A stretch of DNA of 24,000 nt from Anaerobacillus sp. MEB173 (GTDB lineage Bacteria; Bacillota; Bacilli; Bacillales; JBJMAU01). The first letter of the stretch is position 1; each line of letters begins with the position of its first letter. The translations under genes and the position numbers were made by a program. The stretch is from positions 123,759 to 147,758 of the forward strand of contig NZ_JBJMAU010000002.1 of the NCBI RefSeq assembly GCF_052119505.1. The letters are read 5' to 3'. This document shows positions 1-21,096 of the stretch, piece by piece. The notes beneath the pieces were generated by a model. It made no database searches. It had not been told where the DNA came from and was given only the letters and a program-made list of their open reading frames with translations.

Positions 1-1473
1 TCCAATCGGAATTTCCTTAAACTCATCATCCATTTTGATTCCATACCCATTTCCACGAGGATAACGAACAGCAATTGGTCCACTATGTTGTACCGCTGTA
101 TAGATCATATGCTGTAATTCATTTTCATCCTTTGGCATCATAATCGTCATGTTTGGCACGTGACGCAGAAATGCAATATCAAATACTCCTTGATGCGTCT
201 CTCCGTCTGCTCCAACTAAGCCAGCACGATCAATCGCAAAAATAACATTTAGGTTTTGACGGCAAATATCATGAACGATCTGATCATAGCCCCGCTGCAA
301 AAAGGTTGAATACACCGCAAAAACAGGCTTCAATCCCTGTGTTGCAAGGCCAGCTGACATGGTCGATGCATGTTGCTCAGCAATCCCAACATCGAACATT
401 CGGTCAGGAAATTCTTTGGCAAACTTATCTAATCCAGTTCCACCAGGCATAGCTGCCGTTACAGCAACGACGCGTTTATCATTTTTAGCGATTTTTTTCA
501 ATGTTTCTGCAAAAACACCACTATAACTAGGAGGACCTGGCTTCTTAACAACTTCACCGGATTCAATTTTATACGGTCCTAAGCCATGCCATGTTCCATA
601 TGCATCATTTTCAGCAGGAGCATAGCCTTTTCCTTTCTTTGTTAACACATGAACAAGTACAGGCCCCTTTGTCTTTTTCGCATATTTCATATTTTCCATT
701 AAGTCATCTAGATCATGACCATTAACCGGACCTAAGTACGTTATTCCCATCTCTTCAAAGAAAATACCGGAGACAAGAAGGTATTTAAGACTGTCCTTCA
801 CTCGTTCAGCAGTAGAAGCAAGTTTACCGCCAAAGGCCGGAATTTTCTTGATCAAAAACTCTAGTTCATCTTTAGCTTTTTGATATTTCCCGGCAGTACG
901 CAACCGTCCTAACACATTATGAAGCGCACCCACGTTTGGTGCAATCGACATTTCATTATCATTTAAAATAATAATGAGATCCTTTTGTTCATGACCGATA
1001 TGATTTAACGCTTCAAGAGCCATTCCACCAGTTAAGGCTCCATCACCTATAACCGCAACAATCTTTTCATCCGTTTCCTTCATGTCACGGGCTACAGCCA
1101 TTCCCATTGCTGCTGATAATGAAGTTGAACTATGACCCGTTTCCCAAACGTCGTGTACACTTTCAGATTTTTTCGGAAAGCCACATAACCCTTTGTACTG
1201 GCGCAATTCATCAAAACGATCGGCTCTGCCTGTAAGAATTTTATGAACATAAGCTTGATGCCCGACATCCCATATTAACTTATCTTTTGGGCTATCGAAT
1301 AATTTGTGAAGAACAAGCGTTAACTCAACTACTCCTAAGTTAGGGCCTAAGTGTCCACCAGTTACTGATAATTTCTCCACTAAGAATCGGCGAATATCTT
1401 TCGCTAATAGCTCAAGTTGTTGTTTATTATAGTTTTTTAAAAATGTTGGGTCTTTTATTGAGTGTAAATCCAA
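1..1473 (-). CDS. dxs: 1-deoxy-D-xylulose-5-phosphate synthase, N-terminal 491 codons (C-terminus lies beyond the window start)
   Basis: Hand translation of the minus strand from TTG at 1473..1471 gives [57 protein letters not shown]... This is nearly colinear with the B. subtilis Dxs N-terminus (MDLLSIQDPSFLKN...). It includes the thiamine-diphosphate GDGALTGG motif. The frame stays open to position 1. SD GAGGG lies 6 nt upstream of the TTG. The gene is absent from the ORF track because it is edge-truncated. Confidence 0.9.
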
Positions 1474-1482
1474 GTAAAACCC

Positions 1483-2094
1483 TCACTTCCGTTTATTTTT
1501 CCTTTTACGTTTTCCTCTATCATTACCATTTATTAGCTTTATTTTCATTTTTACCTCAATTAGGTAAAACAAACGACCTACTTGGTAAATGATCGGTGTT
1601 GAATAGCTAATTGCTAATGTTTTCCCAAAAGACTTTCCTCCAACAGTTAATGCGGCAATGATACTCGTAAAGATAATTGAAATGATAAATTGCCATAAGC
1701 CGCCGTCGTGAGCTCCCAGCTGTAAGGAAAGCTGTAAAACTACGTAGGCAGAAGCAGTTCCACTAATAATTCCTGCAATATCACCAATTACATCATTACA
1801 AAAATTTGCGAACCGGTCTGCATTCCGGGTAATAAGGACGGCATGTCTAGCCCCTGGTAACCGCTCAGCTGCCATAGCGTGAAATGGAACCTCATTAGCC
1901 GCTGTCGCCGCAACACCAATTGTATCAAAAATAATCCCAATTAGCACGATAATAAAAACAATTAGCATCCCCATTGCCCAGGTAACTCCACTCAACAAAA
2001 GTGTTGAGATGATTGAAAAAATAGCCGCTAACACAAGAGTGATAACGGCAATTCCCAGGCTCCAATTTATCGACTTTATAAGAGGTTCTTTCAT
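1483..2094 (-). CDS. oapA: Small polytopic membrane protein (about 4 TM segments) with a polybasic C-terminal tail; OLE-associated protein A candidate
   Basis: 203-aa ORF with several long hydrophobic segments. Central conserved-looking block AAERLPGARHAVLITRNADRFANFCNDVIGDIAG. C-terminus NDRGKRKRKNKRK. It lies directly downstream of the structured RNA and 10 nt upstream of dxs, which is the published OLE-oapA-dxs arrangement. The call rests on context plus topology. I cannot run a homology search. Confidence 0.65.
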   Translation of the reverse strand: MKEPLIKSINWSLGIAVITLVLAAIFSIISTLLLSGVTWAMGMLIVFIIVLIGIIFDTIGVAATAANEVPFHAMAAERLPGARHAVLITRNADRFANFCNDVIGDIAGIISGTASAYVVLQLSLQLGAHDGGLWQFIISIIFTSIIAALTVGGKSFGKTLAISYSTPIIYQVGRLFYLIEVKMKIKLINGNDRGKRKRKNKRK

Positions 2095-2159
2095 TACAGT
2101 TGTATCGACACCTATCTCTCTATAAAAGGTTCATAACCTTACTTTTTCATGTCAAAATT

Positions 2160-2712
2160 ATGTACTGAGTGGTCATTTAAAAAGTAAACGCTGCGGCTTA
2201 GGTCCAGTAGGTTTTCCCAAGCGGATACCAAAGTGTCGCCACCTTGGAGGTTTCCCTTTAATTCCACCTTAGCGCTGTCACCAAACGCTAGACTAGATTA
2301 CCACTTAGACCGCACTATAATCCTTTTTAAATGTACAAAGAACAGTCTAGGAGTTTTCCTCAACAGTTCCTACCATTCTCTATCCTCTTTTGCAGAGCAG
2401 ATTTCATATGACTTTAAGCATAATCCCCTCTACTCCACTCAAGGCAGGCTACGCTACCCGTAAGTTCCCTAACTTACAAAGGTAGGTTCATACCCCCTGA
2501 AAGCAACAAAGGCTGCAACAGTAAGGCCTCCGCGGAGCAGGGTCATCGCCCACATGCCATTGTGGATCGCCCTAACTCCTTTACCCCCAGCATCGACCCA
2601 AGCCTGGGCGACTCAAGCCGACACAAGAGACTTCATCGATGTGCCCTTTAGCGGATTTTTAGGCCCGCCTTCAAGAATGGAGAACCGACTAGAATACTGC
2701 ACCACTCATTTT
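2160..2712 (-). ncRNA. ole: OLE (ornate, large, extremophilic) RNA candidate, about 550 nt; ends approximate
   Basis: The 712-nt gap between ispA (stop 2807) and the membrane ORF (start 2094) has no same-strand ORF. It is locally G+C-rich (37/60 G+C in 2521-2580 by hand count) within an AT-rich genome. Many local helices are visible on the minus-strand RNA, for example CCACA-AUGGCA-UGUGG (about 2546-2561) flanked by repeated GGCGAU, CCCUG...CAGGG (about 2496-2542), and a CCCA-GGCU-UGGG hairpin (about 2597-2608). RNA 5' UGAGUGGU (2708..2701) pairs perfectly with 3' ACCACUCA (2173..2166). Genomic context ispA-RNA-oapA-dxs is the hallmark of OLE. Confidence 0.75.
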
Positions 2713-2718
2713 ATCTAG

Positions 2719-2747
2719 ATTATATCACGGTTTTTCAGCCTGCTCAA
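2719..2747 (-). promoter_or_regulatory. Sigma-A type promoter with extended -10, positioned to start the structured RNA
   Basis: Minus strand reads TTGAGC (2747..2742), a 17-nt spacer ending in TG-A, then TATAAT (2724..2719), which gives TGATATAAT. The predicted start near 2712 is 4 nt before the 5' half of the 8-bp closing helix. Confidence 0.45.
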
Positions 2748-2806
2748 TTATATAGAAGTTAAAACACCTTGATTCATTTATCAACACGTAATACAATACT
2801 GCTAAA

Positions 2807-3700
2807 TTAATGGTCACGTCCTGCAATATAGTCTGTAATGGCTTCTAATGTAGAGTGTTTGATATTGACACTATATAAATATTCTTTTGCTAGCTTAATA
2901 TGCTCATTAAGTTTATTTTTTGCACCTTCCATCGTTAATAATTGTGGATAAGTGCTTTTTTGATTCGAATCATCACTACCTACAGGTTTCCCGATGATCT
3001 CTTGGTCACCTTCAACATCGAGAATATCATCACGGATTTGAAAAGCCAGCCCTACATGCTGAGCAAACTGTTTTAATCGAAAGATTTCCTCGTCACTGGC
3101 CTCTGCAAGAATGGCACCTGCTTCTACTGCATATGTAAGCATATCTCCTGTTTTATGATTGTGAATAAATTCTAGTTCTTCTACCGTTAAATCTCTGTTC
3201 TCACCAAGCATATCTGCCATTTGGCCACCTACCATACCTTCTGGACCAGCGGCACATGCGAGTTTCGCAATTAACTGTAATTTCATATCACTCGTTATAG
3301 AAGGATGCGTTATTGCCGAAATGACTGAAAAGCTAAATGTTAATAAACCATCCCCTGCAAGAATTGCTGTTGCCTCTCCAAATACTTTATGGTTGGTTGG
3401 CTTACCTCTTCTTAAATCATCATCATCCATTGCTGGCAAATCATCATGAATTAAAGAATACGTATGAACCATTTCAAGAGCGCATGCTGTACCTAGTCCT
3501 AATTCATCATCCTTGCCAAACGCTTCAATCGTGGCCAGAAGCAAAACTGGACGAATTCGTTTTCCTCCGGCTTTCAAAGAATAGAGCATAGCTTCTTTCA
3601 AAGGTTCAGGTGTTGCAAGTTCTTCAATATAACTTGGAAGAAGCTTATCAATCTTCATTCTCTTTTCATTTATAAAATCTTCTAATGTTATATTATTCAC
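2807..3700 (-). CDS. ispA: Farnesyl diphosphate synthase ((2E,6E)-farnesyl-PP synthase, polyprenyl synthetase family)
   Basis: 297 aa. First Asp-rich motif [19 protein letters not shown] and second motif FQIRDDILD. Sits downstream of xseB as in B. subtilis (yqiD). The start overlaps the xseB stop by 8 nt. Confidence 0.9.
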
Positions 3701-3941
3701 CTGCTACCTCCTCCTGAAAAGCAGTAACCTCAATTTCCCCATCTTCCTTCACAATTTGATCCATTTGCTTTTCTACTGTTAGCAGTTTATCATGACAATA
3801 TTTTGATAGCGACATTCCTTCTTGAAACATTGTGATTGCCTCTTCTAATGGAACATCGCCTCGCTCTAACTTTTCAACAACTTGTTCTAACTGCTCCATT
3901 GCTTTTTCAAACGATAATTTCTCTCCCTGCTGCTCACTCAT
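3693..3941 (-). CDS. xseB: Exodeoxyribonuclease VII small subunit
   Basis: 82 aa, acidic and helical. The [26 protein letters not shown] signature is typical of XseB. It lies directly downstream of xseA. Confidence 0.9.
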
Positions 3942-3972
3942 TTCTTTACACCTCTCTTTATGGAAAATTTCA

Positions 3973-5316
3973 CTACTTACTGTTTATTCGGTCTATTCTG
4001 CAATCCAATTTCCCGTCTTGTACTTGAACTTGTATATAATCACCTGTGCTTACTTGCTTTACAGACTTTACTAACGCTTGATCATCTGTATAAACAAGAC
4101 TGTAGCCACGGTCCATGACCTTAAGTGGACTTAACGCTTCTAATTTTGAGATTTGATTATGAAACGAATGCTTTTTATTCATTATAATTGTTTCAAATGC
4201 TTTCTTTAAACCATTCTCCAAACGGGTCGTTTTATCTTTTGCCTCTATCATTCGTTCAATTGGATGATTTCTATTTAAACCTTTTTGCAATTGTTCTAGC
4301 CGGTCTTTTTTCCGGTCGATCATTCTTTCTGACTCACGGTGAAGACGATCCAATAGGCGATCTAGTTCTTGTTCTTTCTGCTTGACCAGCTGACCTGGAT
4401 AACGAAATGCATATGATTTTTGCATATGATGAAGACGATCCTTATTCATCGATAGTTTCTCATTCATTGCACGAATTAACCTTGTTTTCCTTTGCTCTAT
4501 CCGTTCCATAATTTCAGTCATTGAAGGAACAGCTAATTCCGCAGCAGCCGTCGGTGTAGCTGCTCGAATATCCGCAACAAAGTCAGCAATCGTGTAATCA
4601 GTTTCGTGGCCCACTGCAGAAATAACAGGGATTTTTGATTCAAAAATTTTCATTGCTACAATCTCCTCATTAAAAGCCCACAGTTCCTCTATTGAACCTC
4701 CACCGCGACCAACGATTAAAACATCAAAAAGATGGAGTTCATTTGCTTGTTCAATCGCTCTAGCAATTGATGCAGGAGCATCATCCCCTTGAACTAGAAC
4801 GGGAAAGAGCGTAATTCTGGCAATAGGAAATCGTCGTTTTAATGTTGAAATAATATCACGAATTGCTGCACCGGTCGGTGATGTTACTACAGCAATTTCT
4901 GTAGCGAAGGTCGGTAATGGTTTTTTCAGTTCATTGGCAAAAAGGCCTGCAGATTCAAGCTTGGCCTTCAATTCTTCATATGCTAAATATAAATTCCCGA
5001 TTCCGTCTGGCTGCATTTCTTTAGCATAGAACTGATACTGCCCATGGGGTTCATACACGGAAACATCTCCCCGAACAAGAACGTTCATCCCGTTTTCTGG
5101 GATGAACTTTAAATATCGATTATTTCCTGCAAACATCACCGATTGAATTCGAGACTGATTATCCTTGATCGTGAAGTACATATGTCCACGACTATGCAAT
5201 TTAAAATTTGATATTTCTCCTCGCACCCATACATTTTGCAGCTGCTCATCTTGATCAAATGTCTTCTTTATATAGCGGGTTAATTGGCTAATTGTTAAAA
5301 ACTGATCACTGGCCAT
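3973..5316 (-). CDS. xseA: Exodeoxyribonuclease VII large subunit
   Basis: 447 aa. N-terminal OB-fold region ([24 protein letters not shown]), catalytic core ([19 protein letters not shown]), and a C-terminal coiled-coil. Conserved folD-xseA-xseB order. Confidence 0.9.
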
Positions 5317-6985: not shown

Positions 6986-7396
6986 TTATTCTTCGTGTGT
7001 TTCTACTGCTAATTGTTGTTCTGTTGTTTCAAACTGAATTCCAACAACATGGACATTTACTTCAGAAAGTTCAATTGCCGTCATTGTTTTTAATGTTTGA
7101 TAGATATTATTTTGGATCTTCTGTGCAACTTCAGGGATGGCAACACCATAAACCATTACGACGAATACATCGACAGCAATCCCATCGTCCTTAAGATCCA
7201 CCTTGACACCTTTACCGTGATTCTTTCGGCCAAGTCGTTCGACAACACCTGAAGCAAAGTTGCCTCTCATCGTCGCAACTCCCTCAATCTCAGATGCAGC
7301 AATGCCAGCGATGACTTCGATAACTTCTGGTGAAATCTCAACCTTCCCTAGTTCATTTTTGGACTCTTCTAAATCTAAAATGTGATTTTCATTCAT
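6986..7396 (-). CDS. yqhY: Asp23/Gls24-family alkaline-shock / envelope stress protein
   Basis: 136 aa. The motif ISPEVIEVIAGIAASEIEGVA is typical of the Asp23 family. Conserved position between accC and nusB as B. subtilis yqhY. Confidence 0.85.
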   Translation of the reverse strand: MNENHILDLEESKNELGKVEISPEVIEVIAGIAASEIEGVATMRGNFASGVVERLGRKNHGKGVKVDLKDDGIAVDVFVVMVYGVAIPEVAQKIQNNIYQTLKTMTAIELSEVNVHVVGIQFETTEQQLAVETHEE

Positions 7397-9405: not shown

Positions 9406-9765
9406 TTAATAATTTTCCTCTTCTTGCGTCGTTGGCTCGGTGATGATTGCATCTTTTTTGTATTGTCTGAACACAGGAAACTCTGATAAATTATCTGGAA
9501 TTTTACCATTCTCTAGTAAAATAATTTTTACAATATTTTTGTTTCGAGCCATATGGTATTTATCACCGTACTCATTTTCTTGTGTAAAATGTTTTAAACT
9601 TTGATAGTCTTCTTCCTGAATCGAAACAGTATACGACCCATCATTTGTCTCAAATTCTTGTTCAAATCCAACTTCAAATTCAACAATTTGAATATGATCA
9701 TTTTTCATATTTCTTGTCTGCTCTAAGACTGCTTTGGCGCCTTCTGTTAGGTCATTCCATTCCAT
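9406..9765 (-). CDS. Hypothetical acidic protein, 119 aa, own transcription unit
   Basis: Clean ORF with SD AAAGGGAGAG upstream of the ATG, bracketed by hairpin terminators at 9946-9995 and 9351-9391. I recognise no family. B. subtilis has no gene between spoIIIAH and accB. Confidence 0.55.
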   Translation of the reverse strand: MEWNDLTEGAKAVLEQTRNMKNDHIQIVEFEVGFEQEFETNDGSYTVSIQEEDYQSLKHFTQENEYGDKYHMARNKNIVKIILLENGKIPDNLSEFPVFRQYKKDAIITEPTTQEEENY

Positions 9766-9945
9766 AACGATCTCTCCCTTTATGTAAAATTTCCAAATTC
9801 CTACACGTAAAGAAACTTTTTATGCATTTCTTAGTATTGATTTGAAATGAACGATCTAATCATTTTCAGTGTTACTTTCTTATTAAAAATTTTCCAATCC
9901 TTCACCGTGTTGTATTATACCATTACAAAGTGCCATTTGCACTAT

Positions 9946-9995
9946 GTAAAATAGCTCAATAAGAACAGCACCACAGGGGTTGTTCTTATTGAGCT
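9946..9995 (-). terminator. Terminator hairpin ending the spoIIIA operon
   Basis: Perfect 15-bp stem (9981-9995 with 9953-9967) and 13-nt loop, 6 nt after the spoIIIAH stop. It is followed on the minus strand by AUUUUAC, which is a short U tract. Confidence 0.55.
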
Positions 9996-10000
9996 AATTC

Positions 10001-10594
10001 TTATTGTTTTGTTGGTTGAAAACTTACAGCTACGTTTTTCTCGCCTAGTTGCTCACGAGCCATTAAGATAATTTTATTTCCTTCTTCACGTGATAATTCT
10101 TCTGCTTTTACAATAATTTTCACTTGATCATCCTCAGTAATAACAAGAACATCCTCATAACCTTCTGCTTGAATCAGCGTTTCTAACATCGCTTCCTTTT
10201 GTGCTAATGATTGTAATTTTTGCATTGCTTCTAATGCTTGAGTTCGTAATTCTTCAGCTGTTTCAGTGTCTGCAACAATAGAAGTATATTGCTCACTTAA
10301 ACGATCACGGCTTACCTCTCTGTCCAATCTGATAGATGCAAAAACCTCATCACTCGTAACATTGGAAATCACACTGTCTTCATCAGTCCATTCAGAGCCG
10401 CCAACTTCTGTCGCTTCTTCAATGTCTACCATTGATTGTTCTTGTTCCATTGGTTCAGCATCATTTTCCTCAACCTCCAATAATGCCAAATGTTCATTCG
10501 GCACCTGTCCTGGAGACGTAATATAATACACGGATAATACAATAATTAAACTTAACATTGTTAAAAGCCATACTGTTTGTTTTTTTAATACCAT
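10001..10594 (-). CDS. spoIIIAH: Stage III sporulation protein AH
   Basis: 197 aa. N-terminal TM (VWLLTMLSLIIVLSVYYI), acidic linker, and C-terminal YscJ/FliF-like region. It is the eighth and last gene of the colinear spoIIIA cluster (B. subtilis AH is 218 aa). Confidence 0.8.
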   Translation of the reverse strand: MVLKKQTVWLLTMLSLIIVLSVYYITSPGQVPNEHLALLEVEENDAEPMEQEQSMVDIEEATEVGGSEWTDEDSVISNVTSDEVFASIRLDREVSRDRLSEQYTSIVADTETAEELRTQALEAMQKLQSLAQKEAMLETLIQAEGYEDVLVITEDDQVKIIVKAEELSREEGNKIILMAREQLGEKNVAVSFQPTKQ

Positions 10595-10595
10595 T

Positions 10596-11267
10596 TTATT
10601 CTTCCCCCTTTAATTTTTTTGGTAATACTGATACGCGGTGAGTTGGGACGTCTAGTACTCTACTGACTGCCTCTACCACCATTGTTTTTACCTGAATGTT
10701 ATCAACTCCTCTAGCAACAACTACAACTCCACGTACTGCTGGTTTTTCTGTTTTTACAATCAGTGGCTTCTCACTGTCACCATTACGAATAATAACTACC
10801 TTTTCATCTCGGGTTACATCTTCTACCTTTCTTTTCCCACCTTCACGATCTGTTTCATCTGTGTTTTGTTTCTTTGTATTTTGATCCTTTTCATACACCT
10901 GCTTTTCTGTCTCTGCTAGATTAATCATCACAGATACGTCAGAAACACCAATGATTTCCTCTAAAACCTCTCTCAGCTGATTTTCATATCGGTGTTCATA
11001 ATCCTCCATTGAATAAGGTTCTGCTTGTGCTTTATTTCCAAAAACTGGTTCACTATCAGGTGATGTGTCGTCTTTGAACACTGGCATAGCAACCTGATTA
11101 GATCCAGATTCATTCGTAAAGAAATTACCTAAAATCATTAGTGCAACACCTATACATAAAACTAATGCCAAATAATGAATTGACTTTATCTTACCTTTAC
11201 CTTCCTCCTTTTTTTGAAATAATTTTGTTAACCATTGTTTATGGTTTTTTTCCTCTTTGTCCATCAC
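10596..11267 (-). CDS. spoIIIAG: Stage III sporulation protein AG
   Basis: 223 aa, single TM. The C-terminal block VRGVVVVARGVDNIQVKTMVVEAVSRVLDVPTHRVSVLPKK is characteristic of SpoIIIAG. Overlaps spoIIIAF by 4 nt. Confidence 0.8.
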   Translation of the reverse strand: MMDKEEKNHKQWLTKLFQKKEEGKGKIKSIHYLALVLCIGVALMILGNFFTNESGSNQVAMPVFKDDTSPDSEPVFGNKAQAEPYSMEDYEHRYENQLREVLEEIIGVSDVSVMINLAETEKQVYEKDQNTKKQNTDETDREGGKRKVEDVTRDEKVVIIRNGDSEKPLIVKTEKPAVRGVVVVARGVDNIQVKTMVVEAVSRVLDVPTHRVSVLPKKLKGEE

Positions 11268-11902
11268 TCATCCCCTCCTTCCAAGGCTAAAGAGATAACC
11301 TCTTTAGGAATTTGCCATTCATTCGCTAAATAAAGTTGGACTTCAGATAGATTTGCTGGCTGTTCAGTTAACTTCTTTGTTTGCAGTTCCTTCTTGGTAT
11401 CAATCATTACAACAGGTATTGCTTCTACTTTAGCTTCTTCCTCGGTCTGCTCAACTTGCTGTTTAACAACAACTTCAATACCTGTGATACTCTTGAGGAA
11501 GTCTTCTTCGTTAGCAAATTCATCAATGGAAATCAGGACTTCTTTTACTTCCAAACCATAATCGTTAACCAGCTCCTCTTCCACTTGTTGTTTCATTTGG
11601 ACAGCCACCTGTTCTGAAATATATGCACGTTGTCCCATTTCTATATCTGTTTTCTTATTTTCAATTAAATTTTCTAGCTGCTCATCAGAAAGATCCTCAT
11701 TCATATTTATTGGTTGAAAGATTGTTTCAGGGCTATGCGAAAATACCGATAATAAAGGTGTTAAAATAACAACAATTAGCATTAAACCAACAACCATTTT
11801 GACATAACGCTGAAAATTAGAGTTCGGAAGGAGTAACTCTAAAACGGTTGCCAGCAGGATAATCAAAATAATATTCGTAACCCAATCCGTAATAAACTGC
11901 AA
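11264..11902 (-). CDS. spoIIIAF: Stage III sporulation protein AF
   Basis: 212 aa, two N-terminal TM segments. N-terminus MQFITDWVTNIILIILLATVLELLLPN is typical of SpoIIIAF. TTG start with SD AAAGGGGGGAG. Position is conserved. Confidence 0.8.
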   Translation of the reverse strand: MQFITDWVTNIILIILLATVLELLLPNSNFQRYVKMVVGLMLIVVILTPLLSVFSHSPETIFQPINMNEDLSDEQLENLIENKKTDIEMGQRAYISEQVAVQMKQQVEEELVNDYGLEVKEVLISIDEFANEEDFLKSITGIEVVVKQQVEQTEEEAKVEAIPVVMIDTKKELQTKKLTEQPANLSEVQLYLANEWQIPKEVISLALEGGDE

Positions 11903-11922
11903 GAAACTCCCCCCTTTCGTTA

Positions 11923-12037
11923 GTTTAGAGTTGAAAGTTTAGAGTTTAGAGTGTTTGATTGTACCTCTTGGGAGACCCAAAACCCCTCATTGAATTTGCT
12001 CGAGATAACTCTAAACTCTACACTCTAAATTCTAAAC
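11923..12037. repeat. Palindromic heptamer-array element, copy 2 (inside the spoIIIA operon, spoIIIAE-spoIIIAF spacer)
   Basis: Left arm 11923-11954 GTTTAGAGTTGAAAGTTTAGAGTTTAGAGTGT equals heptamers TTTAGAG/TTGAAAG/TTTAGAG/TTTAGAG. Right arm 12007-12037 AACTCTAAACTCTACACTCTAAATTCTAAAC is its imperfect reverse complement (about 26/31 by hand). The 52-bp core contains a small TTGGG-AGA-CCCAA hairpin. Confidence 0.6.
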
Positions 12038-12044
12038 TAGCTTT

Positions 12045-13214
12045 TCACCTCACCATCAGCGACAGGTTCCCGGCGGCGATGATGATTGTAATAGCGAGGA
12101 AAAACATTAAGCATACTGTTGCCAGTGCTGCGAAGATGAAAATGACGGCCTTTCCGATTGTTGATAGGCATTCGATAACCGGTCCTCCACCTAGTGGTTG
12201 CAAGACTGCCGCTGCAATATTAAAGATGAGAGCTAACGATAAGACCTTTATTGCCGGAAACGCACAAAGGAGTAAAAGGATAGCAAGACCGGCAATACCA
12301 ACTGTATTTTTCAGTAGTACAGATGCACTCATCACGGTATCAGCCGCATCGGTAAACATTCTCCCGACAACTGGAACAAAATTACCGGTTACAAACTTTG
12401 CCGTTCGTATGGTAATTCCGTCAGCAACAGCGGTTGTTGCTCCTTGAACGGAAATAATGCCCAAAAAGATGGTTAAAAAAATACCTAACGCACCAACTGC
12501 GACATTCCGTAGTAGATTGGCAAGCTTGGTCACTTTATAATGGTCACTTAATATACTTACAATGCTAAGTATTGCTGATAGAAACAATAATGGCATAACA
12601 AAATGCTGGATTAATAACCCACTTGTATTGACCAAAAGGACAATTAACGGATGGAAAAAAGCTACTGATGTCAAACTCCCTATCGAAGCCATTAACGCTA
12701 ACAACAATGGTAATAATGCAATCATAAAATTGATCATATTACTAATCGCCTCTTGCGCGTAGCTAATGGCTACATGGAAGCTGTTTAAGGCAATAATGAT
12801 TAACACCATGTATGTGATCGCATAAGCCACCTTACTAATCGCATGTTGTTCAAAGGCGTTTTGCATTTGCTGCAGTATCATACTGAAAACCGTCAGCAAG
12901 ATTAACGTTCCTAGTAGCTTGCCATTGACGACTAATTCATGAAATAAGTATTTAACGAGTCCGGTCAACCATTCCTTAATTGAAAATTGTTTCTCTCCTT
13001 TAACGAACTCCATAAACGAGCCTTTTTGACTTTCTGGAAGAAAACCTCCATACTCAGTGACAACTTCCTCCCAATACGCTCGGATATCATCTATTCCTAA
13101 TTGTTCTAATTGTCGTTCGATGAGGTTTTCTTGGGGTGATGGTTCCTGTTCAGCATGAACTGAAGCGATTGGTAGAAAGAAAAGAACTAATAAAATGAAA
13201 AACCAATGTTTCAT
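12045..13214 (-). CDS. spoIIIAE: Stage III sporulation protein AE (polytopic membrane protein with signal peptide)
   Basis: 389 aa, with an N-terminal signal-like segment and then many TM helices. Fifth gene of the colinear cluster (B. subtilis AE is 399 aa). Confidence 0.85.
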   Translation of the reverse strand: MKHWFFILLVLFFLPIASVHAEQEPSPQENLIERQLEQLGIDDIRAYWEEVVTEYGGFLPESQKGSFMEFVKGEKQFSIKEWLTGLVKYLFHELVVNGKLLGTLILLTVFSMILQQMQNAFEQHAISKVAYAITYMVLIIIALNSFHVAISYAQEAISNMINFMIALLPLLLALMASIGSLTSVAFFHPLIVLLVNTSGLLIQHFVMPLLFLSAILSIVSILSDHYKVTKLANLLRNVAVGALGIFLTIFLGIISVQGATTAVADGITIRTAKFVTGNFVPVVGRMFTDAADTVMSASVLLKNTVGIAGLAILLLLCAFPAIKVLSLALIFNIAAAVLQPLGGGPVIECLSTIGKAVIFIFAALATVCLMFFLAITIIIAAGNLSLMVR

Positions 13215-13255
13215 CTGTTCACCCCTCTATGAAATGGCAAATCTCCTAATAGGTC

Positions 13256-13654
13256 TTAATTTGGTAACAATGAAATTACCATTTCAATGATCGATGTTAT
13301 GATTGGTATGGCCATGACCATAATTAATACCTTGCCGGCCAGTTCGATTTTTGATGCTATTGCCGCTTGTCCGGCATCTTTGGCTATTTGAGCTCCAAAC
13401 TCTGCAATATAAGCGATTCCAATAATTTTTAAGATGGTTTGCACATAAATCATGTTAATGTTGGCATTAACAGCAATTCTCTCTAACATAGTGATGACTT
13501 TGTAAATTTGATCGATTAAGAATAAAAAAATAAGAACGCCCACAAATACAGTTAACAAAAATGCAAAAATGGGCTTTTGTTCTTTTACGACGAGTGCAAG
13601 AAAAGTTGCAATAAGTCCTAATCCTACAATTTGTATTATTTCAATGGTGAACAC
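13256..13654 (-). CDS. spoIIIAD: Stage III sporulation protein AD
   Basis: 132 aa, highly hydrophobic. Size and position match B. subtilis SpoIIIAD (133 aa). Contains the motif IAYIAEFGAQIAKDAG. Confidence 0.85.
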   Translation of the reverse strand: MFTIEIIQIVGLGLIATFLALVVKEQKPIFAFLLTVFVGVLIFLFLIDQIYKVITMLERIAVNANINMIYVQTILKIIGIAYIAEFGAQIAKDAGQAAIASKIELAGKVLIMVMAIPIITSIIEMVISLLPN

Positions 13655-13659
13655 CTCCC

Positions 13660-13866
13660 TCAGCCTTGAAAGAGAAAGACACCTTTAATTTTTTGAAAAA
13701 GGTCATCAACAATCGTTGCAACCATATACAAAACAACAACAAAGCCAATTAAGGTAACCCAATGAGCCCAATCTTCCTTTCCCATTTGCTTCAATACCGT
13801 ATGAATCATTGCAACAACAATACCTATCCCGGCAATTTGAAAGATTGTATTCACATCATATGCCAT
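13660..13866 (-). CDS. spoIIIAC: Stage III sporulation protein AC
   Basis: 68 aa with two TM segments. Size is identical to B. subtilis SpoIIIAC (68 aa) and the position is conserved. Confidence 0.85.
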   Translation of the reverse strand: MAYDVNTIFQIAGIGIVVAMIHTVLKQMGKEDWAHWVTLIGFVVVLYMVATIVDDLFQKIKGVFLFQG

Positions 13867-13926
13867 GACCTTTTCTCCTCCTGACCACTTGTCTCTTTGC
13901 GAGTATTCAATTCATAGCTACCATCA

Positions 13927-14439
13927 TTACATCATGAGAATAATAATTAAGAGACCTGTTAAAAAACCTAAGCTTTTTAACATCTTTTCATAACGATTTT
14001 GTGCATCTTTTGCTTCACCTTCTTCTCTTTCTAGGTGGGTGAGCGTTAAACGAATTTGCTTTTGTTGTTGAACCTTATCATGTTGTCCAAGTGTCATTCC
14101 GAATTGTTTCATAATCTCAAGTTCCCCATTACATAAAGCAGTAAAATGCCATGTTTCATTTAAACTTTGCTCCCATGCCTTTTGAGCACTTTCTTCCCCT
14201 TTCGACAGCCAGTAGGAAAAACGTTCGAAAAAATAGGAGATTGGTTTCGGTAATTGCTTTGCAATATGACTACTTGCCTCAGCTAATGGTGTTAACCCAT
14301 ACATAATCTCTGCTTCAAGTGATTGTAGAGCTACTTTTAATTGCCGAAGCTGCCTTGGTCTCTCACTTAATCGTCTAGCAAACTCAAACCCTACCCATGT
14401 CGTAGCAATGATGATTAAAATCGCTCCAATTATTTTCAA
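13927..14439 (-). CDS. spoIIIAB: Stage III sporulation protein AB
   Basis: 170 aa with N- and C-terminal TM segments and a helical cytoplasmic domain (B. subtilis AB is 171 aa). 4-nt ATGA overlap with spoIIIAA. Confidence 0.8.
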   Translation of the reverse strand: MKIIGAILIIIATTWVGFEFARRLSERPRQLRQLKVALQSLEAEIMYGLTPLAEASSHIAKQLPKPISYFFERFSYWLSKGEESAQKAWEQSLNETWHFTALCNGELEIMKQFGMTLGQHDKVQQQKQIRLTLTHLEREEGEAKDAQNRYEKMLKSLGFLTGLLIIILMM

Positions 14440-15368
14440 TGTAATCTCACCACATCTTTTCCGTTTTCATCACGAATTCGGTTTACTTTTCCCGGATGTA
14501 AACGACGTGTCAATTCGATACATCTACTAAAAACTTTTTGGTCCATTAATTCCTTGATTGTCGGCCTTAAATACAAATCCTCCATTTGAAAACCATGAAC
14601 CGTCGTAATAATACTAACACCTGCATGAATCGCCTCATGTATCGCTTGAACATCCTCTTGTCGACCAATTTCATCGACAATAAGGACATCTGGACTCATC
14701 GATCGAATGAGCATCATCATTCCTTCTGCCTTTGGACAAGCATCTAGAACATCGACTCGAGATCCTAAATCATGTTGCGGTATACCTTTAATACATCCAG
14801 CAATTTCGGAGCGCTCATCTACCACACCGATTTTTTTCGGAAGGATTTTAAAATCTTTATCACCACTGCTAATAATTCTCGCAATATCTCTCAATAACGT
14901 TGTTTTCCCGGTTTGCGGAGGGCCTATTATCAGTGTGTTTTCCCATCTGTTTTTTTGAAATAAATAATGAATATATGGATTCGCGACACCTATTTTTTGT
15001 TTTGCAACACGAATATTAAATGAACTAATATGCCGAATGGCTTTGACATGACCTTTTTCTGTAATGACTTTTCCTGCTAATCCGACCCGATGGCCACCCC
15101 GAATCGTAATAAATCCTTGCTTTAACTCTTCTTCTAAAGCATATAAGGAATAATTACTTAATTGGTTCATAAGTTGGACACCATCTTCTTTGCTAACGAT
15201 GTATGGCATTTGTTCCAGCTGTGGGAAGAATGGAGATCCTTCTACACCGATTTCCAAAGGACGGTTAATCCGAATCCGAATTTCTTCCATCTTCTCTTTC
15301 GTTCTTGAAGGCAATTGGTCGATCATTCGTTTAATTGAATCCGGTAAAACGGCGTAAATTTCTTCCAT
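14436..15368 (-). CDS. spoIIIAA: Stage III sporulation protein AA (secretion-type AAA ATPase)
   Basis: 310 aa, Walker A GPPQTGKTT, Walker B-like VLIVDEIG (B. subtilis AA is 307 aa). First gene of the cluster. Confidence 0.9.
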   Translation of the reverse strand: MEEIYAVLPDSIKRMIDQLPSRTKEKMEEIRIRINRPLEIGVEGSPFFPQLEQMPYIVSKEDGVQLMNQLSNYSLYALEEELKQGFITIRGGHRVGLAGKVITEKGHVKAIRHISSFNIRVAKQKIGVANPYIHYLFQKNRWENTLIIGPPQTGKTTLLRDIARIISSGDKDFKILPKKIGVVDERSEIAGCIKGIPQHDLGSRVDVLDACPKAEGMMMLIRSMSPDVLIVDEIGRQEDVQAIHEAIHAGVSIITTVHGFQMEDLYLRPTIKELMDQKVFSRCIELTRRLHPGKVNRIRDENGKDVVRLH

Positions 15369-15413
15369 TACACTCCCCCTAATACCATGAATTTGACTTG
15401 TCCCCTATTGAAA

Positions 15414-15442
15414 ATGTATGCCAACTTCATCGTAATATGACA
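15414..15442 (-). promoter_or_regulatory. Sigma-E type (mother-cell) promoter for the spoIIIA operon
   Basis: Minus strand reads GTCATATT (15442..15435), a 13-nt spacer, then CATACATT (15421..15414). This closely matches the textbook sigma-E consensus (ZHATAXX about 14 nt from CATACAHT). It lies about 45 nt upstream of the spoIIIAA ATG. B. subtilis spoIIIA is known to be sigma-E dependent. Confidence 0.55.
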
Positions 15443-15456
15443 ATGTTATTTCATGT

Positions 15457-15738
15457 TTAACGTCTTAATCCAAGTAAGATAAGGATTACACCTAAAGCAA
15501 TAAGCAACAGCTTTCCAACCGAAACTTTATCAGCCATACCAACCAGGCCAATCGTCATCGTTGTAATTAGAACGATTGGTCCCACAATAGCTAACAAAGC
15601 ATTAATTGCTACGGCTTTCTCCACTGTGTTGAAACGCAGCATGAGCGATGCGGCTGATAGCTCAAGCAATCCTGAAACCATTCGCAAAATAACCATACTA
15701 AGTACAGTTGTTTCTATAGCAGATAACCAACCTTTCAT
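15457..15738 (-). CDS. yqhV: YqhV-family small membrane protein (DUF2619-like)
   Basis: Hydrophobic protein in the conserved slot between efp and spoIIIAA. I trimmed the track's 116-aa ORF to the ATG at 15738 (MKGWLSAIETT...). That start has SD GGAGAGG at 9-nt spacing and gives 93 aa, the size I recall for B. subtilis YqhV. Confidence 0.7.
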   Translation of the reverse strand: MKGWLSAIETTVLSMVILRMVSGLLELSAASLMLRFNTVEKAVAINALLAIVGPIVLITTMTIGLVGMADKVSVGKLLLIALGVILILLGLRR

Positions 15739-15835
15739 AAACGCCATCCTCTCCGATGTTTTGGAACGTCTCATAATTAGTAAGCAGACAAAAAATACTT
15801 TGTACAACCTATGAGAAAAACCATATATTCAGAAC

Positions 15836-15876
15836 AAAAAAAGAGCAATTTACCGAAGTGGCAATTCGCTCTTTTA
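15836..15876 (-). terminator. Probable terminator after the 143-aa ORF
   Basis: Minus strand has an imperfect stem AAGAGCGAAUU...AAUUGCUCUU followed by a U7 run (A-run 15836-15842 on plus). It starts about 15 nt after the ORF stop. Confidence 0.45.
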
Positions 15877-15890
15877 CAACTTTTCATTCG

Positions 15891-16322
15891 TTAAATTCCT
15901 TGTGGCAGCTGCTTTTCGACTACACGTTTCAGTAATTCATCATCCTCCATCCACTCTTCAAATGATGAGACATCCGAACAAAATGAACCGACACTATGAC
16001 CATCCTTAAACATCTCAATACACAAAATATCATCTGAATGTGAATAATACTCAACTTCAATGCCATTATCTAATGCTTTACGTTGAACGGATGATGTGGC
16101 GGTTGACAGTATTCGGGCATTATTCTTAACATGACTCTCGGCTAATTGAAGAAGATCTGTTTCATCCCACTCTTTGAAGTGAGAGATATCGGAACAAAAC
16201 GCCCCCATTTCCTTTTGTTTATAAAAAACTTCAACACAAATGATATCATCTGAAAATGAATAGTAACTAACTTCAAGATCCTCTTTTAATTGAACCTTCT
16301 TTTTCTCCAATCTGTCCACCAC
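15891..16322 (-). CDS. Hypothetical protein made of two tandem copies of a roughly 45-aa Cys-containing module
   Basis: Repeat 1 is LEVSYYSFSDDIICVEVFYKQKEMGAFCSDISHFKEWDETDLL. Repeat 2 is IEVEYYSHSDDILCIEMFKDGHSVGSFCSDVSSFEEWMEDDELL. The real start may be TTG at 16310, which has SD AAAGGTGGTG at 6-nt spacing, rather than the GTG at 16322. Bracketed by terminators. Confidence 0.6.
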   Translation of the reverse strand: MVDRLEKKKVQLKEDLEVSYYSFSDDIICVEVFYKQKEMGAFCSDISHFKEWDETDLLQLAESHVKNNARILSTATSSVQRKALDNGIEVEYYSHSDDILCIEMFKDGHSVGSFCSDVSSFEEWMEDDELLKRVVEKQLPQGI

Positions 16323-18851: not shown

Positions 18852-19216
18852 GATGTTCACCTCCACTTTAAGTATGTCCACTTCATATTTTTTCTATAGC
18901 AATAATATAGAAACTTTGAAATACATGTGTAAATTATAAAAAATTAGTGAATAATTATAGTGCAAAGGACATTAATGTAGAGGAAAACGAACTTATCATG
19001 TAGAATATAACTATAAAGACAATTAGATTATTTCTAATTTGTTTCATTTAACTATCTTAACTAAACAACAACTTTTGGTGGGCAAGCCATTATGAAATCA
19101 CATAGTACATCTCAGCAGCAATGCTGTGATGTAGGGTATGACTACCATTATAACCACTGATAAATTTGAGTTTTCTGAAGATTCATGTAATTTAAATTCT
19201 ATAGGAGGTGAGTATT

Positions 19217-19594
19217 ATGTCGCGTCAATCTTACCATCCGCTTGTGCTAATACTTATTGGGTTAGCTGGATTGGGCTTGTTCTACCGTCTCTTTAGTGAT
19301 CCGGTTGGTTTTTTAAGTCAAATACTCATTGTAGCTGCTATTGTCGGGGCGATCATTTTTATCTACAAACGGTTTCTAGCCAAAAAATTTGCGGCGCCAC
19401 ATGCGCACCGCCGTCCTAAACCAAAAACAGCAAGCCGCTCTGAACGTTTTAAAAGCAATGTTATCCCGCACAAAAGAAAAAGTACAAACAACTTCAAAAC
19501 CTCTACTATTAAAAAACGGAAAGCAGCTCATAATTTTACAGTAATTGAGGGCAAAAAAAATAAAACAAAGAAAAAGAATCGAGCACTCTTTTAA
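19217..19594 (+). CDS. Small membrane-anchored protein with a Lys/Arg-rich tail (YqhP-like)
   Basis: This is the only credible plus-strand gene. SD GGAGGTG lies 6 nt before the ATG at 19217, and the track's GTG at 19208 sits inside that SD. It has two N-terminal TM segments followed by a basic low-complexity tail. Position and orientation resemble B. subtilis yqhP beside yqhO. Confidence 0.6.
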   Translation: MSRQSYHPLVLILIGLAGLGLFYRLFSDPVGFLSQILIVAAIVGAIIFIYKRFLAKKFAAPHAHRRPKPKTASRSERFKSNVIPHKRKSTNNFKTSTIKKRKAAHNFTVIEGKKNKTKKKNRALF

Positions 19595-20629: not shown

Positions 20630-21058
20630 TTATGATTGCTCTAGCTCATTCTTCTTTTGTGTTTGTCTAAGTAATTCGACTCGTTTTTCATCTTCTTGGA
20701 AGAACTGTACTAAATCACCAATGCGATCAATAGCATCCCAGCTTAAATGATGCTCAATTCCTTCTACATCTTGATATATATTTTCATGGTTTACACCGAT
20801 AATCTTCATGAAATCCTCAAGAAGTTCATGTCGATAAACAAGCCTTTTTCCGATCTTCTTTCCTTTCGGTGTTAACACTAATCCGCGATACTTTTCGTAA
20901 ATTAAATACTGACTTTTATCAAGCTTTTGTACCATCTTTGTTACAGAGGATGGATGAACTTCCAAAGCTTCTGCAATATCCGAGACCCTTGCATAACCCT
21001 TCTCATCAATTAATAAATAAATCCGTTCTAGGTAATCTTCCATACTTGGTGTTGGCAT
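20630..21058 (-). CDS. mntR: Manganese transport transcriptional regulator (DtxR family)
   Basis: [81 protein letters not shown] is almost colinear with B. subtilis MntR (MTTPSMEDYIEQIY...). I trimmed the start from the track's TTG (21073) to the ATG at 21058. Confidence 0.9.
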
Positions 21059-21096
21059 GGTGTTCCCCCCCAATTTCCCTCTGCCTTTTTACAGTC

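Follow-up and report, generated by a model that had tools for sequence, protein, structure and literature searches.

We analyzed a 24,000-nucleotide (nt) stretch of DNA from Anaerobacillus sp. MEB173 (referred to as the window here), focusing on an intergenic gap that an earlier note, made from the letters of the DNA, had proposed to harbor an ortholog of OLE RNA, a class of structured bacterial RNAs described in 2006. All features given below lie on the minus strand unless stated otherwise. The gap occupies positions 2095 to 2806 and is exactly 712 nt long, as the note had it. It lies between ispA (2807..3700), which encodes farnesyl diphosphate synthase, a polyprenyl synthase (PF00348, E = 2e-59; NF045485, 435.8 bits), and a 203-amino-acid (aa) open reading frame (ORF; 1483..2094), which we assign below to oapA, the gene for OLE-associated membrane protein A. 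The partial dxs gene (1..1473; DXP_synthase_N, E = 1.2e-119) comes next, with a TTG start at 1473, 9 nt past the oapA stop codon. The spacer had been described as lying between ispA and dxs; strictly, it separates ispA from oapA, and dxs begins only after oapA.

A scan of the whole window with Rfam 15 yielded a single match, to RF01071 (OLE), at 2721..2153. Its score of 487.6 bits (E = 1.9e-140) exceeds the gathering score of 50, and it spans model positions 1 to 616 of 616 without truncation, so the covariance-model check proposed in the earlier note returned a significant full-length match on the minus strand and its assignment to OLE holds. When the window sequence was fitted to the Rfam consensus structure, 131 of the 139 pairs were canonical. 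We are therefore highly confident that this interval is the OLE gene of Anaerobacillus sp. MEB173, an RNA gene of about 555 to 570 nt (2153..2721; Rfam span, 569 nt), the mature product of which likely begins near 2712 and ends near 2160. Nothing counts against membership in the family.

The base composition shifts as the note had observed, with a G+C content of 46.9% over the RNA and of 37/60 nt (61.7%) in the segment 2521-2580, compared with 37.4% in the window. The impression of a helix-dense RNA was likewise borne out by folding: the 553-nt RNA has a minimum free energy (MFE) of −202.6 kcal/mol (z = −4.42), and none of 100 dinucleotide shuffles folds as well. The conserved ORF that the note had named as evidence against an RNA gene is absent from the interval: the longest same-strand ORF within the gap has 42 aa, and on the plus strand, Pfam matches neither the ORF of 76 aa (2233-2463, already noticed earlier) nor that of 54 aa (2554-2718), even at an E value of ≤10.

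The host agrees with this picture. Anaerobacillus has been described as an alkaliphilic, anaerobic genus (PMC5255918), and strain MEB173, a member of Bacillaceae in Bacillota, represents the extremophilic or anaerobic host type expected of OLE, in line with the stress-adapted Bacillaceae predicted earlier. The window thus contains a bona fide OLE in its canonical position and host type, which a routine Rfam scan would detect. It is neither a new kind of RNA nor a new variant in a strong sense: the class, the position, the partner gene, and the host type were already known.

Covariation and conserved helices

We used the conserved 19-mer AAAGGGCACATCGATGAAG as bait and found it in at least 120 contigs of one-genome-per-species GTDB data. 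An OLE was located by nhmmer in 118 of the 120 contigs listed, all sampled OLEs thus being selected for the 19-mer; the other two contigs, from Streptomyces (L034) and TA06 (L118), contain the 19-mer with no OLE detected by nhmmer and were set aside. A MAFFT alignment of 113 sequences was built from 106 full-length copies among the matches listed, the OLEs of six relatives (four other Anaerobacillus, Bacillus sp. FJAT-45350, and H. halodurans), and that of the window. In this alignment, 117 columns are invariant, the family hallmark of about a quarter of positions being almost invariant is present, and the window agrees with 234 of the 239 columns that are conserved at ≥90%.

Base pairs were counted for the Rfam structure together with three long-range helices absent from the Rfam annotation. 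Standard pairs fill 89.4% of cells, a percentage somewhat favored by projecting the structure from the window sequence, compared with 40 to 46% when the 3′ partners are slid by 1 to 3 columns; in shuffles 75.1 ± 0.2% of cells are paired, and 0 of 500 reach the observed value. Compensatory double changes occur at 136 of 170 pairs versus 83 to 93 in the slid controls. This shows that the OLE architecture is strongly supported by covariation, and the comparison of homologous spacers that the earlier note had proposed thus found OLE in the six relatives and 106 other genomes, with a covarying structure. Helices 11 and 13 are only 48 to 55% paired, and since MAFFT is unreliable in P7 and apical P8, we draw no conclusion there. 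Helices are numbered (P1 to P15) from stem order and from text descriptions.

Two of the full-length OLEs are on contigs labeled Proteobacteria, one from Succinivibrio sp. (L079) and one from Pseudomonas sp. ISL-84 (L100), the latter with Bacillaceae-like sequence. These labels probably stem from contamination, mis-binning, or mislabeling, a problem that Fernando and Breaker also encountered in 24 non-Bacillota OLE matches (PMC11332333).

P1 and P2 close the molecule. The 5′ strand of P1 (UGAGUGGU, 2701..2708) is the exact 8-bp complement of the 3′ strand (ACCACUCA, 2166..2173), and this is the end-to-end helix of the earlier note. P1 is absent from the Rfam consensus annotation. Among the 113 OLEs, 94.6% of its cells are paired, and seven of the eight pairs show compensatory changes; in one column pair, for instance, 52 sequences have GC and 48 have AU. 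The long-range helix that we assign to P2 from stem order (GCAGU-AUU-CUAG at 2689..2700 with CUAGACUGU at 2342-2350) is almost invariant and 99 to 100% paired. OapA-binding palindromes have been placed “in or near P2 and P4a” (PMC12265935), and the CUAG in P2 is one of these two. Inside this closure, P3/P3.1 (5′ strand 2673..2686, pairing with 2365-2380) joins the 5′ domain (P4 to P9) to the 3′ domain (P10 to P15). It has 14 bp and a 2-nt bulge, compensatory changes at 13 of 14 pairs, and 80.5% and 94.5% of cells paired in its two parts; it fits the published description, in which P3 and P3.1 together usually amount to 12 bp and contain a small bulge and have been proposed to form a membrane-spanning helix linking the two RNA domains (PMC12265935).

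The 5′ domain begins with the consensus P4 hairpin (2650..2669; 99% paired), whose A-rich loop CUAAAAAU includes U61 and A62 to A64, all invariant in the 113 OLEs; this loop forms the dimer bridge B1 in cryo-electron microscopy (cryo-EM) structures (PMC12286853). The adjoining “P4a” segment AAAGGGCACAUCGAUGAAG (2631..2649), with the palindrome CAUCGAUG (2641-2634), is identical to the Rfam consensus and is the 19-mer that served as bait, and the P4a region comprises the second OapA site and the OapC-bound kink-turn (k-turn) region J4a/5 (PMC12265935, PMC12286853). The long P5/P5.1 hairpin (2584..2630; loop GCCCA, 2609-2605) has 20 consensus pairs, is 96.7% paired, and shows compensatory changes at 13 pairs. 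A tetraloop hairpin that had been described in this region (CCCA-GGCU-UGGG, 2608-2597) is present in the sequence but competes with the consensus 20-bp P5 helix and its GCCCA loop. In Bacillus coahuilensis (L103:6496-7129), we observed a 5-nt insertion in the otherwise near-invariant L5 loop (GAGGAGCCCAGCCCAGCC; columns 117-121 of alignment A1), which resembles a duplication of GCCCA; L5 is part of dimer bridge B2.

P6/P6.1 (2534..2579) corresponds to consensus helices 9 and 10. Here the pairing CCACA/UGUGG (2565-2561 with 2554-2550) and the two GGCGAU repeats (2571-2566 and 2550-2545), both picked out earlier, turned out to make up the consensus P6.1 hairpin, with the repeats as internal-loop elements and a terminal loop AUGGCA, the positions of which are invariant in the 113 OLEs. 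The proposed pairing of CCCUG (2542-2538) with CAGGG (2499-2495) fared less well: both segments are there and are complementary, but in the consensus CCCUG is the 3′ strand of P6 and CAGGG that of P7. P7 (2493..2526) is shortened, measuring 38 nt between anchors compared with a median of 52 in 106 OLEs, of which 13 are equally short; it forms a clean hairpin in the MFE fold, and the posterior probability of the Rfam alignment is low there. P8 (2454..2485), a hairpin of normal length, comprises 13 consensus pairs, and its anchors are 28 nt apart (median, 30).

A small conserved hairpin (GAG-GAAAA-CUC, 2351..2361), flanked by the 3′ strands of P3 and P2, would be P10 by order; it is 99.1% paired, with compensatory changes at all 3 pairs. 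The remaining 3′ domain, P11 to P15 (2174..2341), contains helices 20 to 25, which are 87 to 100% paired with many compensatory changes. P13 (2290-2270) reads UAGCG-U-UUG[GUGA]CAGCGCUA, that is, it has a GUGA tetraloop and a bulged U, and P14.1 (2248-2227) has a GCGA tetraloop. In H. halodurans, a GNRA tetraloop on P13 and a single-nucleotide bulge in its stem are needed for OapB binding (PMC7936274). Judged by sequence, the predicted elements for OapA (CUAG and CAUCGAUG), OapC (the J4a/5 k-turn), and OapB (P13) are therefore intact, and the dimer-contact loops L4 (CUAAAAAU), L5 (GCCCA), and L6 (AAUGGCAU) are kept.

Truncation of P9 and the dimer contact

The OLE of the window differs from most others in its P9 arm. 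At 569 nt versus a median of 625, it is the second shortest of the 107 full-length copies sampled. The truncated P9 (2383..2445) retains conserved basal and middle parts and ends in the apex UAUG-CUUAAAGU-CAUA (2422-2407); it has no counterpart of the distal ∼37 nt, to which the GGCC kissing loop (L9.3) belongs. Measured from GGGGAUUAUG to CAUAUGAAAUC, the distance within P9 is 8 nt, compared with a median of 45 (quartiles 43 to 47) in 106 OLEs, only one of which, from Clostridium brassicae, is equally short. The Rfam alignment agrees, with a 38-nt P9 insert replaced by 2 nt in the window. All segments other than P9 and P7 have their modal length, and two of the five highly conserved columns that the window does not match are a G and a C aligned to the missing loop region.

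The terminal loop of P9 contains GGCC in about 98 of the 113 OLEs, and a few others have GGAUCC, GAGCUC, CGUACG, or UGUAUACA instead (CGUACG in L102, GGAUCC in L008, and GAGCUC in L074). An apical palindrome GUAUAC (UUGUAUACA) is found in the four Anaerobacillus relatives (L121, L122, L125, and L126) and in two Bacillaceae metagenome-assembled genomes (L052 and L117); in L121 the apical P9 region is at about 2632-2733, and in MFE folds of the four Anaerobacillus RNAs, GUAUAC is not always in the terminal loop. L9.3 makes a symmetric kissing contact, bridge B3, in the RNA dimer, and its GGCC covaries with GAUC and AGCU (Kretsch et al., PMC12286853). The exchange of one self-complementary loop for another (GGCC, GAUC, AGCU, GUAC, and GUAUAC) adds independent support for such an intermolecular contact and widens the published covariation.

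A long P9 with a self-complementary kissing loop is thus a feature that the window OLE does not have. Since published natural OLE variants shorten or lose P9, we regard a long P9 as typical of the family and not as defining it. The four other Anaerobacillus OLEs are 613 to 619 nt long and keep a P9 of 100 to 106 nt with the GUAUAC apex, whereas the window RNA is without the whole distal stem; the deletion is therefore specific to the MEB173 lineage. In all, the long P9 or its palindrome is missing from 5 of the 113 OLEs (about 4%), namely those of the window, C. brassicae, Salisediminibacterium halotolerans, Marininema mesophilum, and Laceyella sacchari. A further case was found on the metagenome contig SL_3KL_010_SEDDRAFT, which has the order ispA-OLE-oapA and an OLE (505 bits with Rfam) that is 81% identical to the window RNA, with a 71-nt P9 and a loop AGCCA. 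The truncated OLEs outside the window, from four sampled genomes and this contig, reach 481 to 515 bits where scored. A truncated P9 is thus a rare but recurrent natural state. Two other metagenome matches to the short-P9 pattern (L128 and L130) are due to chance and lie in unrelated DNA, with no OLE found by either nhmmer or Rfam; the one at L130:13646-14065 adjoins an unrelated bacterial class A RNase P RNA (218 bits, truncated by the end of the contig).

We also considered whether the new loop CUUAAAGU restores a kissing contact and rejected this idea, given that its only palindrome is the 4-nt A/U stretch UUAA, a type that by our estimate about one 8-nt loop in four would have by chance. 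The remaining truncated OLEs show no consistent P9 palindrome either, and so we treat the kissing contact as lost. In the absence of B3, a dimer, if formed, would rely on the L4 A-A bridge and the L5/L6/L7 bridge alone. Taken together, we favor, with some reservation, the view that the MEB173 lineage runs its OLE ribonucleoprotein (RNP) with neither the P9 arch nor the kissing-loop contact, so that a cultured, free-living alkaliphile would possess a minimal OLE of natural origin. The missing distal P9 is one of three refinements to the earlier note, the others being that two of the helices named there do not belong to the consensus and that the downstream 203-aa ORF, unnamed there, is oapA.

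Transcription signals, OapA, and neighboring genes

A predicted σA-type promoter directly precedes the RNA at 2719..2747 (TTGAGC, a 17-nt spacer, and a TG-extended TATAAT). With 10 of 12 matches plus the TG, it is the best σ70-type promoter-like site in the region 1300-4000, and its position predicts a 5′ end near 2712, matching the upper coordinate given in the earlier note. The promoter tool was applied to the window; by eye, we saw a similar TTGAGC/TTGTTG-spacer-TATAAT-like element, its −10 usually TG-extended, upstream of GAGUGGUG in most of 11 relatives (L121 to L126, L052, L002, L050, L059, and L117). Exceptions are L117, where a −35 is not clear, and L059, which is ambiguous; in H. halodurans the −10 is about 19 nt upstream of GAGUGGUG, compared with 11 to 13 nt in the others. 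A dedicated promoter would explain a high abundance of OLE relative to the upstream genes.

Downstream of OLE, a scan for intrinsic terminators found none before oapA or dxs, so OLE is probably cotranscribed with both; it is probably also cotranscribed with the upstream genes xseA, xseB, and ispA. The missing terminator fits the polycistronic transcription and subsequent processing described for OLE (PMC12265935). Between the 3′ end of OLE and the oapA start, there is a small hairpin (AAGGUU-AUG-AACCUU followed by UUUAUAG, 2116-2134) that is too weak to be called a terminator but could be a processing or attenuation site.

The 203-aa ORF starts 58 nt past the end of the Rfam match. Its product matches “hypothetical protein ACJ2A9_05000” of Anaerobacillus sp. 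MEB173 with 100% identity, and its homologs number over 2,000. One of them, from H. halodurans (69% identity), is encoded 50 nt past the OLE of that species; on the basis of position and homology, we identify the window ORF as oapA. An exact-sequence look-up of the gene in the contig index gave no entry, and the organism was recognized through the protein. The motif DVIGD is found at residues 101 to 105, and both D101 and D105 are invariant in 24 homologs including the H. halodurans protein, a DxxxD motif being what sets OapA apart from CNNM/MpfA domains (PMC11332333). The hydropathy profile shows a long block at residues 4 to 67, with room for two helices, and two further blocks at 102 to 120 and 131 to 156; the AlphaFold2 model places helices, at low confidence, at 3 to 36, 39 to 65, 92 to 125, and 133 to 183. 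The C-terminal tail GKRKRKNKRK is strongly basic (11 K/R in 20 residues). Neither Pfam (even at E ≤ 10) nor NCBIfam assigns a family to the window OapA, while some homologs carry a precomputed PF01595 match. A profile search against PDB sequences gave only chance matches to coronavirus spike proteins (E > 0.1). The top four Foldseek matches of the model in the PDB, all nonsignificant (E values of 0.03 to 0.2; TM scores of 0.29 to 0.39), are to the archaeal CNNM protein MtCorB (7M1T/7M1U), which is also named in PMC11332333. The model thus weakly supports a CNNM-like fold for OapA.

The gene order of the window, with xseA-xseB-ispA followed by the promoter, OLE, oapA, and dxs, is the canonical layout, and the order xseA-xseB-ispA-OLE-oapA-dxs is identical in the six relatives. 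Their OLEs score 510 to 539 bits with Rfam in L121 to L124, while those of A. alkalilacustris (L125) and A. alkalidiazotrophicus (L126) were located with nhmmer only. The 9-nt spacing between oapA and dxs recurs in four of the six, L121 to L124 being those checked. Upstream, the window contains xseB, xseA, folD, nusB, an Asp23/YqhY-family gene (6986-7396), accC, accB, and the whole spoIIIA operon (9406-16322), and further along it contains efp, mntR (a MntR-type metal repressor, 20630-21073), and splB. The literature ties OLE to sporulation and metal homeostasis, and the Asp23/YqhY-family gene ranks high among OLE-associated genes. We take the Asp23/YqhY-family gene, mntR, and spoIIIA to be neighbors also in B. 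subtilis, a species not known to have OLE. No Pfam match was found for the window ORFs at 9406-9765 (119 aa), 15891-16322 (143 aa), and 19208-19594 (plus strand, 128 aa), nor was an NCBIfam match for the first of these.

Candidate function, alternatives, and known OLE systems

In H. halodurans, OLE RNA is highly abundant, binds OapA, OapB, and OapC, and localizes to membranes (PMC12265935). The following proposal on function and RNP composition draws on this source together with PMC11332333 and PMC12286853. By analogy with H. halodurans and two Clostridium species, the MEB173 RNA would be abundant, would be tethered to the membrane by a cooperatively bound dimer of CNNM-like, four-helix OapA, and would homodimerize. 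Together with OapA, OapB, OapC, and bS21, it may form a membrane RNP needed to withstand short-chain alcohols, cold, and an excess of Mg2+ and to cope with poor carbon sources. The most likely role, judging from the literature, would be that of a scaffold and regulatory subunit of an OapA-based device for the transport or sensing of divalent cations of the Mg2+ type, in which the activity of OapA would be adjusted by the conformation of the RNA and the binding of its partners and would thereby be linked to stress responses. We prefer this scaffold and regulator view because of the relationship between OapA and MpfA, the anticorrelation between OLE and mpfA, and the Mg2+ phenotype.

Several points weigh against this reading and that of P9. 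The ion transport mechanism is a preference and not a result. The AlphaFold2 model of OapA is poor (predicted local distance difference test [pLDDT] score, 64.9; predicted template modeling [pTM] score, 0.44; 24 close homologs). The view of oapB and oapC is confined to the 24-kb window, where, of the ORFs scanned, efp alone matched a KOW-containing or L7Ae-like family. An artifact of assembly or of the strain is in principle conceivable as the source of the P9 deletion.

The alternative that fares best concerns the mechanism and not the identity of the RNA. OLE could mainly be a ribozyme, its conserved fold catalyzing some reaction with the proteins as cofactors, which we consider unlikely but worth keeping in mind. 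The Breaker laboratory has based such an argument on the size and complexity of OLE and on its ∼25% near-invariant nucleotides (PMC11332333, PMC12265935), and the window reproduces this conservation, with its OLE aligning to the 117 invariant columns among 113 OLEs. However, catalytic activity has not been reported in the literature over about 20 years, the cryo-EM papers show a dimeric scaffold with exposed protein pockets (PMC12286853), and nothing at the window locus speaks to catalysis.

A cis-acting leader, that is, a riboswitch-like 5′ untranslated region controlling oapA-dxs instead of an RNA acting in trans, appears quite improbable. Given the upstream promoter and the missing terminator before oapA, the element is physically part of the oapA-dxs transcript, as such a leader would be. 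With ∼560 nt and ∼25 helices, it is nevertheless far larger than any known leader, and the 58-nt spacer to oapA is outside the conserved fold, the Rfam match ending at 2153; moreover, the H. halodurans OLE is abundant, protein bound, and membrane localized (PMC12265935).

We give slightly less credit still to the idea of a decaying, nonfunctional OLE remnant in which the P9 deletion reflects erosion, even though the RNA is the second shortest of the 107 sampled, has no conserved dimer contact in P9, and has a short P7. A score of 487.6 bits, agreement in 234 of the 239 conserved columns, and canonical pairing in 131 of 139 cases are hard to reconcile with decay, as is a deletion that leaves a clean closed hairpin next to segments of modal length. 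In addition, oapA is intact with its invariant residues, the promoter is kept, and the like truncations in four sampled genomes and one metagenome contig are found in RNAs of 481 to 515 bits where scored. A small protein on either strand, with incidental RNA structure, can practically be dismissed: there are plus-strand ORFs of 76 and 54 aa and minus-strand ORFs of up to 42 aa, but the two former have no Pfam match at E ≤ 10 (the short minus-strand ORFs being outside that search), substitutions across the 113 species preserve pairs and are not codon-like, and the Rfam E value is 1.9e-140.

The locus can be compared with the experimental model, the OLE of H. halodurans. The order xseA-xseB-ispA-OLE-oapA-dxs-rrmJ/tlyA-like-argR is the same in both, the RNAs are 78.5% identical, and they share P1 to P8 and P10 to P15, the OapA palindromes, and the tetraloops of P13 (GUGA) and P14.1 (GCGA); a promoter of the TTGAGC/TATAAT type (by eye in H. 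halodurans) is upstream in each. The H. halodurans OLE is 628 nt long with a P9 of 110 nt and a GGCC loop, whereas the window OLE is 569 nt long with a P9 of 69 nt that has no GGCC, and its P7 is shorter as well. Bacillus sp. FJAT-45350 has GGCC in its P9 loop, as in H. halodurans.

Cryo-EM structures are available for the OLE dimers of C. acetobutylicum and C. botulinum (Kretsch, 2025; Wang, 2025, PDB 9LCR). Compared with these dimers, the loops of bridges B1 (L4) and B2 (L5 and L6) are conserved to the nucleotide in the window, while the third bridge, B3, the symmetric L9.3 kissing loop, has no counterpart. A different point of reference is OLE “variant 1,” which has a shorter P7, P8, and P9, is often without the OapB site, and comes mostly from the TANB77 gut clade (PMC11332333). 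The window RNA resembles it in its short P7 and P9, but we rejected this label: its P8 is modal (28 versus a median of 30 nt), its P13 OapB site is intact, and its host is a cultured, free-living alkaliphile and not a reduced-genome gut symbiont.

OLE is among the largest and best conserved bacterial RNAs that have no known biochemical function, so each well-characterized copy is useful. General interest belongs to the class and not to the window locus, which adds little alone; its modest value is the natural deletion of distal P9 in a cultivable member of Bacillaceae. The closest RNAs in our sample are those of A. isosaccharinicus, A. alkalilacustris, A. alkalidiazotrophicus, and Anaerobacillus sp. 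CMMVII, with 80.6 to 82.3% identity and with the same synteny and promoter as the window. MEB173 and these sister species, which have kept the GUAUAC stem, therefore offer a ready comparison for the part played by the P9 arch in dimerization or stress tolerance, and, if our reading of P9 is true, such a comparison would reveal whether the arch serves dimerization, the formation of higher-order particle sheets, or the binding of an unknown partner.

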